A stretch of DNA of 64,000 nucleotides from Elsinoe ampelina (lineage: Eukaryota). The notes under the pieces were generated by a model. That model had not been told where the DNA came from, did not search any database, and saw nothing but the letters and a program-made list of their open reading frames with translations. Of the stretch, positions 28,441 to 64,000 are shown piece after piece. A program made the translations under genes and the position numbers. The DNA is taken from the NCBI GenBank assembly GCA_010093995.1, contig ML992504.1, positions 1,787,394 to 1,851,393 on the forward strand, given 5' to 3'. Position 1 is the stretch's first letter, and every line of letters begins with the position of its first letter.

Positions 28441-31400
28441 TCACCACTCCAACCCCCTATCCGCCTCCCTACTTTCCAACTCCGCAATCACCGGCTCCAA
28501 CACCCCCCTTGCATTCTCCAACTTCGTCCCCGCCTTTACCCTACTGTAAAACACCGGACAATCCCTGCTATCACACCTCACGTCCTCCCCAAACGGCACA
28601 TCCGCACAACTCCTACACACCGCATCGATGTTCATCTTCCTCGCGCCCGCTTTCTTCAACCTCTCTCTCAGCGCCAACATCGACCCCGCCTGATTCCCCG
28701 CACAACCCGCACAAAGCGGCAACGTCTCCATCCCCGGGCCCAACTTGTCCATGGGGGGCAGCTTAGCTCTACAAACCAAACAAAACGACGTCGCCATGTA
28801 GCTCTCCATCGTCTTCCTCACGCGACCATCGATGACTTCTTTCCCTTTCCCCATGGCGGCGAGACTGCGCACGCGCACGATGCGCGGCATGTCCTCGTAC
28901 CACTGCCTCACGTTTGCGCCGACGAGATTGAAGATGCGCTCCAGCGGCGGGATGAGGTTCTTGTTGATGTAGTACTCTGCGTCCAGCTCGGCTTGGGGGT
29001 CATACAGGAGACGTTCGGGCTCGACGCAGCGCTCGAAGAGCTTGGCGCCTGGCGCACCAGCAATCACAACGTAAGGGATACGTTCGCCGTACTGGGGCTC
29101 CTTGCGGGGGTCGCGGAGCATGCGCTTGGTGGCGATGAGGGCGCCCGGGGGTGGGGGCCCGCGTTCGGCGTACGTGCCGAGTTTGACTTCTTTGGCAAAG
29201 GTGAAGTCGCTGACGCTGACTTTGCCACGCATGATCTTTTCGCATTGGCTTTGGAAGTAGGCTTTCACTTGGCTGAGGTCGGCGGTGCGGAAGAGGAGCT
29301 TGAGGGCTTTTTCTTCGATCTTTTGCTCGGCTGGGGTGCCGTCGCGGCGGACGGTTTCGATACCTTTGGCGTCGAATTCTGGTTCTTTCTGGTTGCGGGA
29401 TTCGTATTTGAAGCCGACGTAGCGCTTTTTCGCGAGCAGAACGCAGGGGTGGTATACCTTTTCGAACTTGAGCTTGACTGGTCGAGGATTCATGTCCGTG
29501 ACACGTTTGGCAATGTCGTTGCCAATGTCAAATGCTTGGTCTCTGGTCTTGCCTTTGAGGTAGACGAACAAGCTGTCTGTGTCACCGTAGACAACTTCAG
29601 CTCCCCAAGATGAAACAGAGTGAATGAAAGCTATCGTCTTCTCGAGCGTCTCGCGACCAGTCTGGACGATGCTGTCTGCGATCTCAGAACAAGGCATGCG
29701 GCCAGAGAATGATGCCGAAGTGTATCCGTATGTGACATTGGCGATAAGCTTTAGAGCCAGCTGTCTGTTATTTAGCAACTGCTGGAGAGTGCGGTCGTCC
29801 TTATCGACCTTCATCCCAGACTTGACCATGACACGAGTCTCGAGAATCTCGCCCAACATCTTTGCGAGGAGTGACTTGCGCATCTCTGGTCGCACATACA
29901 TGAGCCCGTTGGGAGCAATGTTCAGATGGTCCTTGACCAGTTCTAAGATCCGTGGTGATCGTTGAAAGTCTGCAAAGCCGAGCTTATTCGTACCACGCCA
30001 CGGCACAATACGTCCGAGACAAGTCGAGTAGCAGTAGTTGTAGGCAATCATGACGCTAGGGTACAATGATTGGAAGTCGAGAACCAAAAGTGGTGACGGG
30101 TAGAAGGCTGACTGAGGCTCCATGACCAGAGGTAAGCATTCAAGAGCATTCTGCTGCCCAACCTGCTTACGGCTCGGGCTGACCAGAACGAACGATTCGG
30201 GCTTCGCTATTCGGAACATCAGTGACTCTACCTTGAATTGCGAACCACGCGAGAAGACGCTGAAGAAATCGACACCAAGCAGACGAGCTTGTTCAGAAGT
30301 TCTTGGGACAAGCTCGTTAGCGTCGAGTATCTCAAGGTCCAAGGTGACACGGGAGATGAAATAATCAAGGATTTTGGCAAGATCCCGTGGTCTTGGGGAC
30401 TTGTACCACTTCGTCAGATCCGCGAAAGAGTAGTGTGGTATACGGCGATGTAAGAGGTGGAAGACAACGTTCTCCATGGTGTACTGGAGCAAGTTAAGCT
30501 CCGATCTCATGGCTCGCCAGATGTTTATCATATGCCGACCGGTGACTCGGATGGTGGAGGTGTGTGTGAAACCCCATCGATCAGCGTCCTTGCCGAATCG
30601 ACCGTGAGAAGCTGACTTCATCCGACTAAACTCGTCTGGTAGATTAAACTCATACTTGAGTCTGGCCCGCTCAATCAGGTAGCCCCAGCTGGAGTTGTGC
30701 ACTTCATACCCGCAGAGTATGTCTGGGTCAAATTCGCGTACTATGTCGACCATGTGATTGAGTAGATCAAGCTCATCTCCTTCATATGCCACTTCGATAT
30801 CGGTCTGCTTGTTGACTCTTGAAGTCATCGATCCAGAGTCGTCCCCGTTCTCGTCCAGCAGTAAGATACCAAGCCGAAGACCATCTTCTCGATCTGTGAC
30901 TGCGTCATCATCAGAATGAAGACACCAAAAGATTGCGGTAATCTCGTCCTGCTCGGGATCCGGCGCCAGGTCGGTACGACTGTTGACGTGCACTTCCAGG
31001 CTCATGGACGACATGTACTGTGTCTCATGACGCACAGAGGTCGACTTCTGTTTTTGCGTAAACTTGAAACCATGTTTATTCTTCTGCGTCGGTCCTTCAA
31101 TCTGAGAGAGCTCGGGATCCGGTCGGTTCTTTCGCTTCACTTTTGACATGGGAGTTTGCTTGGTTTTGCCCAGGTCCTCATCTTCATCGTGTCCCATTTG
31201 TGCAAAGTCATTGACGTCTTGCCAACTCGGAGGTCTGGTCTCAATCTCCCAGCATCGCAAGTGGCACCCCCATCTGCGCTTTTGGTGGTACAAATCCTCT
31301 TTGGTCTTGTCCGGTACGATGGCAGGCTTCTCTCCACGACATGCTGCTGACGTTCCGCTTGGATCAAAGTCTGGCAGGAAAGGTAGAGTGATAGATTCCA

Positions 31401-33450
31401 ATTTGAAGTCTTGCCCGGCGTATTCGCGAGAACGCTCCGGGACGTCCTTTTCATCGCTGTAGTAGGCGTCTTGATAAACGACGTTGACACCACATTCAAG
31501 CTCCAAGGTGGCTTCTACGTCGTGTAAAGTTGGCGGCGTAGAATGAAATACGTAGGCATAACCAGGCGTCGATGTTATCGAATGGTAGCGTGATGCAAGT
31601 TTCGCCGCGGTCGATGGTGGTGAGCCATTTGTCATTGTTGGGCTGATGGACGTTTTCTTTGCAGATTTCGTAAGGCTTTCATTCGATGAAGTGGCTGGCT
31701 GCACGATTGCCGACGTCTCGGCCTCCACAAGTTTCGCTTGTTGACTGAGACGTCGTGGAAGCTCAGGATCGTTGGCGTTCTTCACTACTTGATATCCGAA
31801 TGACTGGCTCAAGCGAAGCGGCTCTTGTGAGGATGCTGTTTGCTGTGCATCAGGTTCCTGGTGGCCCTGAATGGGAGATAGTGCCTGGCGTTGATCAAGC
31901 TCAGCCAGAAGTTGCGAGCCTGTGAGACCTTTCTGCTCGTAAGGATCCTCATCTTCTTGTCCGCTCCTGGTTTCAGCAGGAGGCTTGGTGTTCTCGGCAA
32001 AGTCTATCTTTCGACGCTTCTGCGAGGCATTGCCATTTAGTAGGAACCGCTTGCGTGGTCGAATCGGAGAGCTGATATTTGAGTCTCTAGCGGGGCGTCC
32101 GGGTGACGATGAGAGCTTCTGGCCTGATAGTGCATCCGTACTCGAGTCGTTACGAGGGTCTTTGACAGGAGTCTGCGCTCGAGCAAACTCTTGATCAGAC
32201 GCAGCAGCTTTCTCGTCTTCGTCTTCTCGCATGCGGAGTACAGTCTTTTCGTCTACTAGAATTTGGGTCGAATCTGGGCGGCTCACTCTGGTCTGTGACT
32301 GTGTGTTGCCACTTGAAGCCAGTTTCTTGACCTTGTCCAAGAACAGCTCTTCGACACTTTCAAGAGTGGTCTGCACCAAGAGCTCCTCCGACCTCGGTCT
32401 GACGAAAGTATCGAAACTTACGTGCTTGGCACCGTCTTTGAGCTTCTCGTCTTGTACAAGCTGCTCAACGAGTGATCTGAACTCATCCTCATGAATCCAG
32501 CCACCTTTACTTGTGTTCCTTGGGTCGGCTGACATACTCACGAGGACCTCCGGGGGAAATGGACTGCTGCCAGGATCCGAGATCCCCATTCTTCGCTTGC
32601 GCCTCTTGGTCTCGTCTCTCCAGAGCCCAGCCATGGACTGAACCAGCTTTTGGTCGGGAGCCAAGTGCGAGAAGCGTTCGACAAAGCTGTGATGGAGAGG
32701 TCTACCGACGACTTCCTCTCGATTGGTGATGTCCTGGACGCAGATGTCGACCTCAATGCTGCAGTGGCTTTGACGTGGGAATTCGTCTTCGGGTAATACC
32801 AGATTTGAGGGTATAGATCGGTCATGCCATTTGTGGACATCGCTGTTGAGCTCCATGTAATCCGGTAGAGGATCGCGAAAGTAGGGCTTGTCTGTTTCGA
32901 CGTTGGCGCAGCCGTACAAGTTGAAGTCGCACATCCATTGTAGCAGGTATTGTAGGTGCGACTCGTACGGCTGAAAGGTCCTCTTCATAATTGCTCCTTG
33001 GTGCAAGAGATCTGCAAGGCGGGTCATGTGTAGAGGATTAAGGATGTAGACCTTTAAAAAGTACTTGTAGCCCACATGGTAGCCGAAGAACGGGACGCCC
33101 TTGACGAGACTGATGTGGGCTACATAGATGGCCTTTCCATCATAGTTGTTGCGCCGGAAGGACACTGCCAGGGCGTGGTCGATAGACAGCCTGAGGGATT
33201 GAATGTATGCATCCACGCGGTCTTTGTCCAGACTCCCATCGTAATCCAAATAAAGATATGGGAACGCGCCATGTATATGAGCGCAGACCTTCTGACCTGT
33301 CTCAGTCGCCCCGAACACTCTGATCACGGGGACTTGTGGTCCATTCTGCTGGGATGCCAGAGACTTTCCACCCCACAGAGGTGGATCCAGAGAAGTCGGA
33401 GTGGCCTGATAGTGATCCACGCAATTCAAGCGTACCCTAAACCTGTCCAT
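28441..33450 (-). CDS. REV3: DNA polymerase zeta catalytic subunit
   Basis: 1669-aa single ORF: HIHGAFPYLY, SRGSQFKVES, LDFQSLYPS, KLIANVTYGY, YGDTDS, KKRYVG, C-terminal Cys clusters (CLVC...CAGC; CRSC...CDSRDC). Confidence 0.97.
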   Translation of the reverse strand: MDRFRVRLNCVDHYQATPTSLDPPLWGGKSLASQQNGPQVPVIRVFGATETGQKVCAHIHGAFPYLYLDYDGSLDKDRVDAYIQSLRLSIDHALAVSFRRNNYDGKAIYVAHISLVKGVPFFGYHVGYKYFLKVYILNPLHMTRLADLLHQGAIMKRTFQPYESHLQYLLQWMCDFNLYGCANVETDKPYFRDPLPDYMELNSDVHKWHDRSIPSNLVLPEDEFPRQSHCSIEVDICVQDITNREEVVGRPLHHSFVERFSHLAPDQKLVQSMAGLWRDETKRRKRRMGISDPGSSPFPPEVLVSMSADPRNTSKGGWIHEDEFRSLVEQLVQDEKLKDGAKHVSFDTFVRPRSEELLVQTTLESVEELFLDKVKKLASSGNTQSQTRVSRPDSTQILVDEKTVLRMREDEDEKAAASDQEFARAQTPVKDPRNDSSTDALSGQKLSSSPGRPARDSNISSPIRPRKRFLLNGNASQKRRKIDFAENTKPPAETRSGQEDEDPYEQKGLTGSQLLAELDQRQALSPIQGHQEPDAQQTASSQEPLRLSQSFGYQVVKNANDPELPRRLSQQAKLVEAETSAIVQPATSSNESLTKSAKKTSISPTMTNGSPPSTAAKLASRYHSITSTPGYAYVFHSTPPTLHDVEATLELECGVNVVYQDAYYSDEKDVPERSREYAGQDFKLESITLPFLPDFDPSGTSAACRGEKPAIVPDKTKEDLYHQKRRWGCHLRCWEIETRPPSWQDVNDFAQMGHDEDEDLGKTKQTPMSKVKRKNRPDPELSQIEGPTQKNKHGFKFTQKQKSTSVRHETQYMSSMSLEVHVNSRTDLAPDPEQDEITAIFWCLHSDDDAVTDREDGLRLGILLLDENGDDSGSMTSRVNKQTDIEVAYEGDELDLLNHMVDIVREFDPDILCGYEVHNSSWGYLIERARLKYEFNLPDEFSRMKSASHGRFGKDADRWGFTHTSTIRVTGRHMINIWRAMRSELNLLQYTMENVVFHLLHRRIPHYSFADLTKWYKSPRPRDLAKILDYFISRVTLDLEILDANELVPRTSEQARLLGVDFFSVFSRGSQFKVESLMFRIAKPESFVLVSPSRKQVGQQNALECLPLVMEPQSAFYPSPLLVLDFQSLYPSVMIAYNYCYSTCLGRIVPWRGTNKLGFADFQRSPRILELVKDHLNIAPNGLMYVRPEMRKSLLAKMLGEILETRVMVKSGMKVDKDDRTLQQLLNNRQLALKLIANVTYGYTSASFSGRMPCSEIADSIVQTGRETLEKTIAFIHSVSSWGAEVVYGDTDSLFVYLKGKTRDQAFDIGNDIAKRVTDMNPRPVKLKFEKVYHPCVLLAKKRYVGFKYESRNQKEPEFDAKGIETVRRDGTPAEQKIEEKALKLLFRTADLSQVKAYFQSQCEKIMRGKVSVSDFTFAKEVKLGTYAERGPPPPGALIATKRMLRDPRKEPQYGERIPYVVIAGAPGAKLFERCVEPERLLYDPQAELDAEYYINKNLIPPLERIFNLVGANVRQWYEDMPRIVRVRSLAAMGKGKEVIDGRVRKTMESYMATSFCLVCRAKLPPMDKLGPGMETLPLCAGCAGNQAGSMLALRERLKKAGARKMNIDAVCRSCADVPFGEDVRCDSRDCPVFYSRVKAGTKLENARGVLEPVIAELESREADRGLEW

Positions 33451-34492
33451 ACCTCACAAGACCTGATGGACCTAGTGAGAATCGATGCTCCATGGTCGTC
33501 GCCTTGCCCGAGTTCATGCGGCCGATATTGCGTGAGTCGTTCTGTGGCGATGCCGAACTGTGATGTGGAAGATCGATAGTCGTACAATTCAAGTTTCAGA
33601 TATTGTTGTGGCAAGTTATGCGACGTGGGTTCTCGCGCGTAAAGTGGTTGCAGTAAACAAGAGGTCAAAGGGATGGCTTGGCGTGTCCCGAGCTCGAGAT
33701 GCAGCCAAAACTGCCCCTCATAGGGAGCCTTATATGTGCCAAACCGCCAATTCAACCAACCTTTATTTATTTACACCTGCGAATTTGCTTAATATTTATA
33801 TCTTCTTAGATATTACTTACTATTATACTTACTAATGTACTTACTAATATTCTAGATAGTTATTATTAGCTATGCTATACCTATGTATTAATTTTAAGGT
33901 CTATTAGCCTTTAATCTAGCGCTAGATTATACTTAATAACCTTAATTAATCGATAGTTATTAACTACTTATAAACTGTCTTCTATATTAAGGTATCTCTA
34001 TAATCTCTATAGTAGTAGTTAAAGAATTAGAGTATTATAATAAGGCTACTAGCTACTAATTTACTAGAGTTATAAGCTTAGATTATATCGATATTTAGTA
34101 AGGCTATAGAAAAGGACAATCTAATACTAAGGATATTATATAATAAAGGCTAGCTATACCTTTTAAAGTATTAGCTTTAATACCTTTAGCTAGCTATAGG
34201 TCTCTATAAGTAGATAGATACTATAGATAAGAAAGAGATATAAGTATATATAAGAGAGGCTTTATAAGAGTTACTAGATAAGGGTATAAAGTACTTAGAA
34301 TATTATATACTAGCGAACGAGCTATAGAGAAGATATAATATAGTAGAAATATATAATATATTAATTAACTTATAGCTTAACTTATAGCTTATAACTTATA
34401 GTAATAGAGTAATATAGCTTAATTATAAGCTTAATCTAGAGAGTATTAGTAGTTATCTTTACGCTATTAATTACTACTATAGCGCTCTTATT

Positions 34493-35060
34493 ATACTAGA
34501 GCTAAATTATTACTAGTTACTTAATACCTATTATAAATTTAAGAGAGTTAGTATCTAAGTATATACTATAATAGATATATACTTATAGTATATCCTCTAG
34601 CTCTATATTAGTATTACTAGATATATAGAAAACTTAGTTACTACTTAATATTTCTATTATCTTAAGGCTATTAGTATTATACTATATAAGGTATAATTTA
34701 ATTAAGGTACTAAAATACTAATTATAGTAGATTTATACTACGCTATTACTAGATAAGTTTAACTAACTCCTATAGTCTTTATAGACTACTATTAGTATAG
34801 TACTAGTAAGATAAACTAGTAGATTAAGTTATAGTAGTTATAATTAGTAAAAGAGACTATAAATAACTAGCGTAACTACTTTACTAAGCTAGTAGCTAAG
34901 GGCGTATTTATAGGCGATAGCCTACTAGATTATATTACTTTACTTACTATCTATATACTAATTATTCGCTATAAACTATAAGAGTTTACTCTCTACTAGA
35001 ATAACTATAGAATCTATAAGTAGAAGAATTACTCTTATATTATTTCTAGCTAACTAGTCT
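34493..35060 (+). pseudogene. RIP-mutated integrase-core (DDE) transposase, catalytic region
   Basis: One frame without frameshifts. Reversing only C>T/G>A changes gives PGPN.CWSLD, GIQVYAAIDAYSRYILWLYIG, VRSDRGTET, YGTS..NQRIESWWSQL and EF...WNNHRIRKQ. Putative D/D/E codons at 34523, 34700 and 34826. True ORF ends not determined. Confidence 0.8.
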
Positions 35061-36739
35061 ATATATACTAGTAGCTAGATCTATATAAGGACAAGTAATA
35101 TAGTATATAAGTTAAACTATAAGTCCTTAGTAAGTTTCTTACTAAGGCTAATAAGTTTAGTATATAGCGTATATAGTAATTTATAACTCTAGATAGTACT
35201 TTCTATACTTTCTCTTTAAGTACTTATACTAACTTACTAAGGTAAATATTAAAGAATACTTACTAGCTAAAACACTCTAGTAGTATTATAAAGTTATTAT
35301 TTAATAGTTTAGAGTAATACCTACTAGTAGTAGTACTAATACTAAGAGTTATTAGCTTTATTAACTAGTATATCTTTATCTTTACTAGGCTACTTATATC
35401 TATATTACTCTTAGTAATATTAATCTAGAACTAGTCGAGTTAGATAAGCCTTATTAGACTAGAGTTATTAGGCTAGAGATTGTTATATTATTTAAGGTAC
35501 TAACTAGTAAGGAAGGTAATATAGATTTTTAATTATTAAAAAAAGTATAATTCTCTCTTCTTTCTTTACTTTTCTTCTTTCTTACTTATTCTTTATAGAT
35601 TTACTACTATACTTATAGCTAACTTATAGTAATATATTAGTAATAGATTAGACTCTATACTACTCTAAGTAGAGTATTTATTATAACTAAGTAATAGGCT
35701 AATATACCTTTTATAGTAGCTATAGTACTAGGAACTCTAATATACTAACTAGTAAAGTATTTATAAGGACTAGCTAGTAGAGAGAGTTATTAAATACTTT
35801 CTCTAGCTATTTAAGCTTACTATTACTAGCTATAAGCTTATCTATAAGTTAGTAGCAAGTATAGACTCTACTAGTATAGCTACTACTAATAACTACCTTT
35901 ATAGCTTTTACTTCTCTCTCTTCTACTACTATTTAATAGTGCTAGATCTATATAGCTACTAAACTACTTTAGGCTAATACTAGTACTTATATACTTTTAT
36001 TAAGAGGCTAATTAGTAGTATTAATACTACTAGTCGATCTATACAAATTCTATATCCTTATTAAAGCTTATATATAATTAGCTAGAGTAACTTATAGTAA
36101 GTATATATTAATCTAGACATTTAAAGTACCTAAGATATATAAAAAATAAAATAACTCTTTCTATAAGTAAGAGTTTAATACGTAGAGGAATAATAAGCTA
36201 TATAGTAAAGCCTTTATTATTTTTCTTTTAACTTATAGTAATAATTACTCTCTTTAATCTTAGATAATAGCCTTTAACTACTTTAATAGTGCCTTCCTCT
36301 ATACTAGCTAGAGCTCTACTATAGATACGCTATAAAGACTTACTAAAGCCTTCTTAGTAGTAGTATAAGATCTTAGTAGCCTTCTTATACTATTCGTAGC
36401 TAAATAAAAGAGAAAGAATAGTAATTATAGTAATACTACTTATGTAATTATAATCTATATCTAGTAGGTTAAAGGATATAAGAAGAGCTTAGTAAGTTAT
36501 ACTATAAGTTATACTTTAAGTACTATACTAAGTACTAGATAAATTAAGAAAGAGCTAGAGCTACTTAAGTCTATAAGTAGTTCTCGTAGTTAACTTACTA
36601 GTATAACTTATACTAACCTTATTTAGTAACTCTACTAAGATTAACTCTCTAAATTTACTAACCTAACTAGAGATAATAATAAGACTCTTTTTACTATTAA
36701 ATATTTCTCTCTAGCTATAGAGTTATTTAAGAATTTAGA

Positions 36740-36880
36740 GCTAGATAAGCTAGATAAGCTAGATAAGCTAGATAAGAGAGAGAAGAGAGAGAAGAGAGAG
36801 AAGAGAGAGAAGAGAGAGAAGAGAGAGAGAAAAGAAAAGAGAAAGAGAGAAAGAAAGAGAGAAAGAGAAAGAGAGTAAGA
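36740..36880 (+). repeat. 9-bp tandem repeats (GCTAGATAA)x4 then (GAGAGAGAA)x5, decaying into a purine tract
   Basis: Read directly from the sequence; translates LDK-LDK...REK-REK on +. Confidence 0.85.
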
Positions 36881-38334
36881 GATAGCTATACTAGTAATAC
36901 TAGAGAAGAGAGAGATATAATTAAGATAGAGAAAGAAGTAGAGAGTAGTTTAACTTTAGCTACTAAGTTAGATTATAAGCTAGATTATAAGTTAAACTAT
37001 AAGTTAGATTAATCTATATTAGTCTAACTTATAATAGTACTTATAGAGACTTATAGTTAAATTTATAGTATATAATAAGGTAAAAGTATATCTATTAAGT
37101 ATTATTTATAAGTATAAAAAGGTACTAAGGATTAAGGTAAGCTAAGCTACTTCTTAATTATAGCTAATATATTCTTTACTATATTATAGTTATTTTTAAA
37201 AGTTACTACTCTTACTACTAGCGCTATATTCTCTACTTCTAAAATAGTAACTTACTACTTACTTATAGCTAGACTTATAGCTAGATCTACTATAGATAGT
37301 CTAGTAGTAGTAGCGGTAGTAGTAGCGATAGTAGTAGTAGTAAGAGTAGTATTCTTTCTCTCTATCTCTTCTTTCTTCTTAATCTTCTTCTCTATATTAT
37401 AATAACTTTTATTATTCCTTTTATAGAAGATATAAGCCTTCTTCTTCTTCTTAAATACCTAGTAAGAGTAGCTATACTTAATATACTCTTTATATAGTTT
37501 ATAGGCTAGTACTTCTTCTATTATCTCTATAATATAGCTAGCTATATCTATATAATAAAGTAATTAATAAGTATTATATCTCTATAACGTACTATAGAGG
37601 TAAGCTAGCTTAGCCTTAAAAGTAATAACTCTAAAGAACTAAAAATTAAATAATATAGTAGTTATTAGGTAGTAGTATTCTCTATAAGTTATTAGTAAGT
37701 ACTCTATAAGTATAAATATCTAGCTAATCTTATACTATACTAGCCTTAAAAATCTGCCCTTAAAGAGCTACTAGATTATACTTATAATATTAAAGGTCAA
37801 AAAATTAACTAAGTATAGTATAGTACTTAGTAGAGATAAAAGGGAAAATATAGATAAGCTTAAGATTATAGTAAGCTATATAGTAATTTACTATACTATA
37901 AGTCTATATAGTAAGGACAATAGCGAGGAGGTATATAGGTATAATTTGCTATTAAACTTATTAGCCTTAAAGTCTAATTATAACCTAAACAACTATAATA
38001 ACTTATAGTAGTAGATAGTTAAATAAAATAATATTATAAGAATACTCTCTTAGAGGGCTTCTTAGAGCTCTTATTTACCTTAGAATGCTTTAAAAAACTT
38101 GTAAATACGAGGATTAATAGCGCTAGAGAGGTTATAAAAAAAGATGTTTAGTAGTGGTTGTTTATTTACAAAAGTCAAAAGTTTTGGCGGTTTGGCACGT
38201 ATAAGCTGCCGTCCCCTCAATCTTGTAGAGCCGCACCTTACTTGTGGCATCTCAAGATTCACTTTCGCGATTCCTCCAGTTCAAATATCTTTCCTCTCCC
38301 CACGACCTTCCATCGTGGTCGCTCGCCCCTCACC

Positions 38335-39783
38335 ATGCCACCGCCACCTCCGAAACCGACAGACGACCCCAAGAAAGACACCGAGCGGAACGAGTACATC
38401 CCGTCTTTCATCTCCAAAAAGCCATTCTACATCGATGATGCCACTGCCAGTCAAGATGACTATCTCGAGCATCAAAGATTACAGAGCCAGAAGAACCTCG
38501 ATCCGATCGCGACGTCGAAATGGTATGACCGAGGGAAGAAAGTCGCACCTGCGGCAACGAAATACCGAAAAGGCGCCTGTGAAAACTGTGGAGCAATGAC
38601 ACACAAAGTCAAGGACTGCTTACAACGGAAACGAAAACACGGTGCCAGGTGGACTGGAAAGGATATTCAGGCAGATGAGGTTGTACAGGATGTCAAGCTT
38701 GGCTGGGACGCAAAGCGGGATCGATGGAATGGGTTTGACGCCAAGGAGTATGACCAGGTAGTCGAGCAGTACAATGCACTCGAAGAGGTCAAGAAGCAGA
38801 CTTCGGCAGTTCAAGGTCAAGATGACGAAGAAAGGGCAGCTGCAATCGAAGATGGCGACAAATACGAGGCAGAGACGGATATGGGACGGCAACAACCTAC
38901 CTCTACCAGGAATCTGCGGTTACGAGAGGATACAGCAAAATATCTACTGAATTTGGATCTTGAGTCATCGGCAAAGTACGACCCTAAGACTCGATCACTT
39001 ATCGAGCAGGACCCGACAGGTGCAGATGCTGGCGATGGCTTCGAAGCTGCAACAGGCGACGCTGCCGAATTTGAACGAGCACAGAAGTATGCATGGGAGC
39101 GACAGGAAAGAGGCGACAAGGATGCCGTCAATCTTCAAGCAAATCCTACAGCTGGTGAGATCGGTAGGAAGAAGCAAGAGAAAGAAGCGCTAGAGAAGAA
39201 GGAGGCACAGCGAAAGGCATTGCTGGAGAAATATGGAGGGCAAGAACATCTGCAGAAAGATCCTCTGAAAAATGTATCGGTCACGGAGAACGAGAAGTTC
39301 GTCGAATACGATGCCAAAGGCAGGCTCAAAGGGCTGTCGGAGAAGAAGGAGAAGAGTATGTACGCTGAGGATGTTCATATCAACAATCACACCTCAGTAT
39401 GGGGAAGCTGGTGGAAGGACTTCAAGTGGGGATATGCTTGCTGTCACTCTACGGTCAAGAACAGCTATTGCGTTGGCGAGGAGGGACGAAAAGCTATCGA
39501 AGAGTCTGCTGCGTTCAGCAGGGGAGATATGCTCGCGAAAGAGAGTGCAGCCTCTCAGTCGGTCGAGGTACCCAAGGTTGTGGCCGAGGCAGAGGGGAAG
39601 AGTCTCGAAAGCCACGTTCCAAATGCGGTGGACCGTCCAGAGAAGGTCAGGAGCGATGAGGGCAGAGGCAAGCGGACGTATGAAGAGATGAGCAATGGCG
39701 TTTCCGCAGAGGATGTGGAAGAATACCGCAGGAGCAAAGCAGCAAAGGACGATCCAATGGCACAGGCGGTGGATGCAGTATAG
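38335..39783 (+). CDS. SLU7: Pre-mRNA splicing factor Slu7
   Basis: [15 protein letters not shown], zinc knuckle [53 protein letters not shown]. First ATG at 38335; the upstream in-frame stretch overlaps the transposon TIR. Confidence 0.96.
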
Positions 39784-63130: not shown

Positions 63131-64000
63131 ACGTCTGCCCCGGGGATCTGGCCATCCCCTAGAACTGGCCACTTTAGGGTTAACCCTATCTGCAGCCAAT
63201 CGGAGAGCGTGATTTTGCCCCGAGACTAGTCCAAAATAGTGTTCTCGGATTTCTATCTTCTTCTAAGCTTTATTACACCTGACAACTACCTTTTCTAATA
63301 GTTCTAGCTATCTTAATTAAATGTAAAAAGTAGCTTAAAGAGGCTATATATGAATATTATTATTAGAAAGGTAAGATATTGAAAAAAGAGCTTAAATAGC
63401 GCTTTCCTCTTGTTACTAGACAAACTCTTACTTATTATTTAAGAGAATTATATAAGTTATATATAATAAGCTATTCTTATTAGTAGTACCTTATACTAGC
63501 ATAAGAGAATGCTCTAATTAAGTTTATTTACTTTCTATCCTTTAATAGCTTTAATCTAAACAATTACTAGCTTAATTAGTACACTAGTTACTTACTTAAA
63601 TTCTTAACTATCTAACTAGTATATATACTCTCTACCTCTATTAGTAAGTACTAGTATATCTACTTTAAAGAGCGCTATCTAGAGATCGATCTCTAGTGTC
63701 GTTCGGCTATAGATAGTAATAGATTAGAAGAGCTTAGTAACACTAAAAAGGTAAAGGCTTAGTTTAAGTTAGTAGTATACGCCTTTAAAGTCTTTAATAT
63801 TAAGCCTTATAACACTTATAATATAGACAAGATTAGCTATATACTTAGTTAATTACTTTATAAGTAGATCTAGATTATAAGTAATAATAAGTATAAGTTC
63901 TATTTATATTAATCTAGTAACTATAAGTAGGCTATAGCTATTAAGACTCTAAGTATTATTAGCTATATAGTACTACTAATGTTTATCTTAAAGAGTTAAA
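63131..64000 (+). mobile_element. RIP-mutated Fot1/pogo (Tc1-mariner) DNA transposon, left part
   Basis: TA target followed by an ACGT-starting TIR with internal repeats CCCCGGGGATCTGGCCA (63138-63154) and CCCCTAGAACTGGCCA (63156-63171). The de-RIPped + frame gives QENAL..FI, IGKHW..RF..RHP (~63640) and YNMDE.G..LG (63817-). Confidence 0.9.

Follow-up and report, generated by a model that had tools for sequence, protein, structure and literature searches.

The window analysed here is a 64,000-nt stretch of Elsinoe ampelina DNA (assembly GCA_010093995.1, contig ML992504.1, positions 1,787,394–1,851,393 of the + strand; position 1 is its first letter). It is otherwise gene-dense with a GC content of ~52%, and it contains a block at ~33.7–38.2 kb in which GC is 24–27% and CpA/TpG are nearly missing. 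This block is a RIP-destroyed DNA transposon of ~4.5 kb (33721–38213) with imperfect 30-bp TIRs, flanked on its two sides by the divergently oriented genes REV3 and SLU7. The ATG of REV3, which encodes DNA polymerase zeta (28441–33450, − strand; Pfam REV3_N, DNA_pol_B and zf-C4pol), lies ~270 bp from the element, and the probable ATG of SLU7 (38335–39783, + strand; Pfam Slu7) ~120 bp from it. When the element is subtracted from the interval between the two genes (33450–38335), an intergenic gap of ~385 bp is left. Neither gene shows obvious spread of RIP from the element. DNA of the locus is present in two public runs, both from one sample. Another AT-rich, RIP-damaged block begins at the window edge (63300–64000).

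The damage is confined to the interior. With both strands counted, the element holds 22 CpA dinucleotides against 618 expected from the flanks, 50 CpG against 570, and 85 CpC against 523; the interior thus carries saturating RIP (C>T/G>A) and the tips are intact. The left TIR (33721–33750, + strand) starts with TAGGG, and the right TIR (38184–38213, − strand) terminates in CCGTC, i.e., GACGG on the reverse strand. These inverted-repeat arms pair at 24 of 30 bases overall, with 21 matches among the inner 22 bases and 4 among the first 9. The ends reported in the preliminary description, together with the flanking CCCTCA (33715–33720 and 38214–38219, both + strand), are present; the argument drawn from them proved weaker than claimed. 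The flanking duplication admits two readings: 6 bp (CCCTCA), in which case the element starts TAGGG, or 5 bp (CCCTC, 33715–33719), in which case it starts at 33720 as ATAGG. The 6-bp reading is tentatively favoured because the A at position 2 is retained in every end of the sister families described below, while the shifted register pairs five rather than four of the first nine TIR bases.

The five motifs of an integrase-type transposase described earlier for one + frame occur in order at 34496, 34550, 34694, 34796 and 34997. All 55 motif residues are attainable by RIP reversal (T>C/A>G) alone, and each motif reaches its full score only once among the ~8,900 positions that the element's six frames offer. 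Run directly on nine X-read frames of the element, Pfam returned no family. When the genome was searched with Pfam rva_4, a less-damaged element came up at another locus (52 bits), and its X-read core retrieved two intact proteins, one of which in turn retrieved 91 further proteins with rva_4 and often also rve and Clr5. Of these 91 homologs, those with a named source belong mostly to Pezizomycotina, and some are animal; representatives at E≤0.001 numbered 2335. An HMM built from the 91 intact homologs matched one + frame of the window element without any deRIP at 63.5 bits (E 6e-21, model positions 22–417 of 474), and gave nothing significant in the other five frames. In the control run the same HMM scored the window frame at 68.6 bits, whereas 66 of 300 codon shuffles gave any score (maximum 3.0 bits), as did 54 of 144 segments from four other, largely RIPed loci of this genome (maximum 2.1 bits). 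The integrase-type (rve/IS3) nature of the core, as proposed from the letters, is borne out by these scores and by the domains of its homologs.

Conserved positions were also counted directly. At 52 conserved columns, a test that is not fully blind because the columns were taken from the HMM alignment, 48 codons are RIP-compatible with the consensus residue and 17 of them are still identical; the transversion control gave 19, and random codons gave 9.8 ± 2.7 (maximum 21 in 5000). The intact protein P0108 finds the window copy in a genome search with an E-value of 1.4e-15. All 16 matches of this search contain stop codons, so that the transposase lineage looks extinct in this assembly. The AlphaFold model of P0108, a close intact homolog (pLDDT 87), resembles, among PDB entries, the integrases of foamy virus and HIV as well as TnsB (best E 5e-5).

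The whole transposase gene spans ~33932–35535 and is longer than the 34493–35060 interval noted before. By HMM alignment, its N-terminal part (33932–34492, + strand) corresponds to the Clr5 region of the intact homologs. It holds a 17-codon insertion (34349–34399, + strand), probably a RIP-eroded intron to judge from sister family B, which carries a GT..AG intron at the equivalent place. The rva_4/integrase-type catalytic core follows at 34493–35170 (+ strand; HMM alignment and motif scan). All three catalytic codons are mutated, D1 at 34523 and D2 at 34700 now reading AAT and E at 34826 reading AAG, with a D2–E spacing of 41 codons. The C-terminal part (35215–35535, + strand) is in a different frame; RIP-aware alignment to the homologs L102 and L103 gave 42.8 bits, compared with 11–15 in the two other frames. 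The frame change before 35215 may reflect a second intron or a frameshift.

Past the transposase, a probable ORF2 extends over approximately 35650–36990 (+ strand), with a RIP-eroded C-x-H-x-C-x2-C at 35658–35723 and a charged 9-bp repeat at 36730–36880. Among 355 ORFs of ≥150 aa in 80 metagenome loci collected for comparison, 22 open with the same motif, whereas reversed controls gave 2. For the ORF2 N-terminus, a RIP-aware profile scored 26.0 bits in the window (null 19.1 ± 2.1, maximum 28.5); its best position was on the + strand just past the transposase, both here and in each of the four sister copies examined. A longer profile was not significant in the window (29.2 bits; null maximum 32.3) or in family C, and was significant in family B (40.4 bits; null maximum 31.4). 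Stops across the region number 42 in the ORF2 frame and 66 and 60 in the other frames. ORF2 is thus a probable, though statistically insecure, component of the window element, where it probably represents the accessory gene of the intact relatives.

In those relatives, ORF2 appears as a conserved, unnamed gene with a zinc knuckle, for which a ubiquitin-like fold is predicted in one subgroup. The model of this subgroup (nine sequences) has a mean pLDDT of 57, with 70–90 in the domain. The modelled beta-grasp domain has a best VIA-align Z of 7.7, below the caution line of Z 8 (rmsd 2.7, 87 aligned), and nearly all 50 rows of the VIA-align list are ubiquitin-like folds. Foldseek gave no match to the model at E≤0.001, Pfam no family above cut-off on the intact ORF2s tested, and ESM Atlas only leads below 0.9 for the intact ORF2s (zinc ribbon 0.81; DUF2420 0.88). 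A literature search for a conserved zinc-knuckle ORF2 found none. The putative ORF2 product would most likely be a partner of the transposase with a regulatory or protein-binding role.

A possible ORF3, Cys-rich and then charged, was seen by eye at 37300–37700 (− strand), where families B and C likewise show minus-strand ORFs to the eye; comparison of this region with family B gave 38–45 bits, no better than off-frame noise. When 1174 metagenome ORFs were aligned pairwise, with RIP allowed for, to 35.25–38.15 kb, only low-complexity matches and the transposase tail were recovered, and Pfam on 12 downstream frames of families B and C gave nothing meaningful. A genome search for DUF3716, its sensitivity lowered by RIP, returned three matches, none within these elements.

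The superfamily suggested in the preliminary description was IS3EU. In PMC10045372, IS3EU is defined by termini of the form TA..TA together with TSDs that are usually 6 bp, and it is grouped with GingerRoot; the supplement shows the motifs WHID..KL..G..I.G.IDG.SR and NQRIE.W in Repbase IS3EU transposases. Both motifs are common to these and to the family found here. As a proxy for the Repbase reference proteins we used the metagenomic element L124, which has TACGG..CCGTA ends and a 6-bp TSD. Its TIR agrees at 19 of 20 bases with the start of IS3EU-1_TuIn, whose first bases are listed, along with the TAYGG..CCRTA ends of rust families, in PMC12730594. The window core scored 125 bits against the L124 transposase (null maximum 20), 186–196 bits against the closer relatives L102, P0108 and L103, and 67–76 bits against animal homologs. 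The motifs and the L124 scores place the enzyme in the IS3EU/GingerRoot lineage, and to this extent the suggestion holds. It fails at the termini: the window element ends TAGGG..CCGTC, i.e., TA..TC. Since the defining terminal feature is missing, we file it as an IS3EU-type variant and not as a canonical member. The element is, therefore, a dead variant within a known superfamily, already reported as common in some ascomycetes (PMC11645255).

Two sister families and a further relic in the same genome bear on these ends. Family B (L015, C4:1036.1–1041.8 kb, and 8 other sites) is 5.68 kb long and has CACCG..CCGTC ends; its copies range from 44% to 36% GC, a gradient of RIP damage, and three are interrupted by nested insertions. 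Family C (L013, C9:1023.1–1028.3 kb, and 4 other sites) is ~5.2 kb long, has TATGG..CCGTC ends and comprises two subfamilies. A fourth, divergent relic (L100, C8:599363) has a TATGG left end and continues into a long RIPed block, in which its right end was sought and not located. Being dispersed with unique flanks and TSDs, families B and C are mobile elements. The preliminary description had anticipated 6-bp TSDs at other copies. For the sister families this was contradicted: in the 14 sister copies with both ends (9 of family B and 5 of family C, with truncated fragments and the C8 relic left out of the count), the TSD is exactly 5 bp in every case. All 14 right ends are GTC, and 13 read CCGTC; the left end differs by family (CACCG in 9/9 of B, TATGG in 5/5 of C, TAGGG in the window). 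These elements probably form an asymmetric-ended ascomycete sub-group, and a 6-bp duplication is not typical for the sister families of this genome. In an RY-coded (transition-blind) tree of 38 cores, the window element, families B and C, the C8 relic, L102 and L103 cluster together and adjoin L104/L107, with low bootstrap values of 69 and 77 for the grouping of the TC-ended elements. A literature search for IS3EU elements with a 5-bp TSD or asymmetric ends found no description; Repbase reports, outside its scope, may hold one.

Metagenomic relatives provide a broader view of the ends. The 50 loci (of the 80) with enough flank were screened for TIR pairs; terminal-type pairs were recognized by eye in 17, of which 12 are symmetric TA..TA. 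Readable TSDs, from long contigs only, are 6 bp in L122/L123 and L124 and 5 bp in L167. Most pairs lack a TSD, probably because short contigs join flanks of different copies, and for this reason they were omitted from the count of TSD lengths. Both ends of L104 read GACGG, and the left end of its relative L107 reads TACGG, which would fit an asymmetric family mis-joined in assembly. Several relatives have features of their own. L122:380–3033 has 370-bp TIRs that start with TACAG and hold inner inverted repeats, with a 6-bp TSD. The TIR-bounded L117:22–13287 (13.3 kb) has apparent cargo including a helicase-like ORF, identified by eye, and the TIR-bounded L149:5624–14920 (9.3 kb) has DUF3638/DUF3645 as apparent cargo.

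The element can be compared with published systems. It shares with IS3EU and GingerRoot (PMC10045372, PMC6839031) the motifs of an integrase-like DDE core, as well as TIRs, a left-end TA and, in one of its two readings, a 6-bp duplication. The differences lie in the ends and their duplications. First, complete IS3EU families are described as always ending TA..TA and GingerRoot as occasionally ending TG..CA, whereas the right end here is TC. Second, the published TSD is usually 6 bp (6–8 for GingerRoot), as opposed to 5 bp in the sister families. Third, GingerRoot TIRs measure 100–150 bp, and the imperfect window TIR 30 bp. The fungal TET-carrying IS3EU elements, e.g., IS3EU-1_TuIn (PMC12730594), have, via L124, the same transposase family as the window element. 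They are, however, 9–12 kb long with TAYGG..CCRTA ends and TET/JBP and alpha-kinase genes, against 4.5 kb here. Neither gene was detected in the window element, which is a weak negative given the RIP. L124:5633–12184 is itself a TET/JBP-carrying IS3EU element close to IS3EU-1_TuIn; its Tet_JBP gene (E 8e-6) is under the Pfam cut-off, and the ORF on its minus strand begins Cys-rich and gave no alpha-kinase match over the stretch scanned.

Styx/REP9 of Zymoseptoria (PMC8232023, PMC10853768) is likewise an ascomycete, IS3EU-related, multi-gene TIR element, killed by RIP in sister species, and its listed TIR starts with ACGG, the core of GACGG/TACGG. It differs in being active and 7.9 kb long, with four genes (two with DUF3716) and a 6-bp TSD; the window element is 3.4 kb shorter. 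New insertions and excisions of Styx occurred in a pedigree (PMC10853768). We also considered whether the Styx TSD is 5 bp plus a fixed terminal base, and rejected this since, among 36 of the 324 table rows, all four bases occur at the last position.

We propose, with high confidence, that the locus holds a dead DNA transposon that once moved autonomously by cut-and-paste, encoded a transposase of the IS3EU/GingerRoot lineage and came from a sub-group of ascomycete elements with asymmetric ends. By established DDE chemistry, its transposase would have bound the conserved inner 22 bp of the TIR; the freed 3′ ends would have been joined to target DNA whose two strands were cut 5 or 6 bp apart, and repair would have produced the duplication. 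The insertion would have fallen into the ~385-bp gap between REV3 and SLU7. RIP in a sexual cycle would then have destroyed the interior while at least one other copy existed, and this partner may since have been lost or missed by search or assembly. Ordinary cut-and-paste is the most likely mode because of the integrase-family chemistry and the Styx excisions and insertions reported in PMC10853768.

Several observations count against this proposal: the TA..TC ends, with 4 of the first 9 TIR bases pairing; the ambiguous TSD length at the site next to 5 bp in the sister families; the statistical weakness of ORF2 and ORF3 in the window; the low bootstrap values for the TC-ended group; and the failure to find a second copy, though RIP needs a repeat. 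DNA and TIR-pattern searches of the genome, which can miss copies, recovered only the two ends of this copy, and the remaining TIR-pattern matches have no element context at the sites inspected (L024, L025 and L202). We also observed an unrelated 2.7-kb RIPed element (L021:3144–5862) with perfect 42-bp TIRs, apparently at TA sites, which we take to be Tc1/mariner-like.

Could the element instead be a fully canonical IS3EU copy (TAYGG..CCRTA, 6-bp TSD) whose tips decayed after insertion? Its 6-bp duplication is perfect, either end is one base off TACGG, and the TAGGG register fits better than ATAGG in view of the A at position 2 of all sister ends. The change at the right end, however, is T to G, which is not RIP-type, and it is fixed in both sister families. 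The CCGTC right end common to the window element and its sisters is, therefore, an inherited trait and not decay, and we consider a canonical origin unlikely.

Another explanation for the asymmetry takes the two ends as functionally unequal, like those of bacterial IS3-family elements that move by copy-out/paste-in. GTC-3′ would be the obligatory first-cleaved donor, the right end would attack near the left end to form a circle intermediate, and the left tip would be free to drift. Such a donor/target asymmetry of ends exists in IS2 and IS911. Consistent with it, the right GTC is invariant in the 14 sister copies and the window, across three divergent families, next to left tips as different as CACCG, TATGG and TAGGG; within one metagenome family, moreover, L107 starts with TACGG and L104 has GACGG ends. 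L104 may, however, have been mis-assembled through its TIR. Both ends retain A at position 2 and G at position 5, the readable metagenome pairs are mostly symmetric, and excision is reported for Styx (PMC10853768); all of this counts against the unequal-ends reading. It is accordingly improbable that the two ends work unequally, and just as doubtful that this sub-lineage kept or re-evolved an IS3-like division of its ends, with a fixed GTC donor, a drifting left end and a 5-bp stagger. If true, a directional, circle-forming route that is not described for eukaryotic TIR elements may operate, helped by a conserved accessory protein with no Pfam family (zinc knuckle plus ubiquitin-like domain).

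An LTR-retrotransposon integrase, which the preliminary description had held up as the reading that would overturn its own, or a chance product of free deRIP, is largely refuted and has next to no probability left: the fold class is common to retroviral integrases and AT-rich DNA permits many deRIP readings, but TIRs are present, no terminal direct repeats were found across 33–39 kb, RT/RNase H Pfam domains occur in none of the 91 homologs (proteins of 187–597 aa), and no control exceeds 3 bits, compared with 68.6 for the window frame.

The copy itself is dead and accounts for no phenotype, although its insertion splits the short divergent promoter region of REV3 and SLU7, which could matter for expression. 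Its value lies in transposon classification. RIP-aware scoring classifies heavily RIPed relics such as this one without any consensus, and the zinc-knuckle ORF2 describes a second gene of ascomycete IS3EU-type members. Applied to this genome, the published IS3EU signature (TA..TA, 6-bp TSD) would overlook at least two multi-copy families, and the invariant right tip offers a testable handle on how a little-studied transposase treats its two ends.
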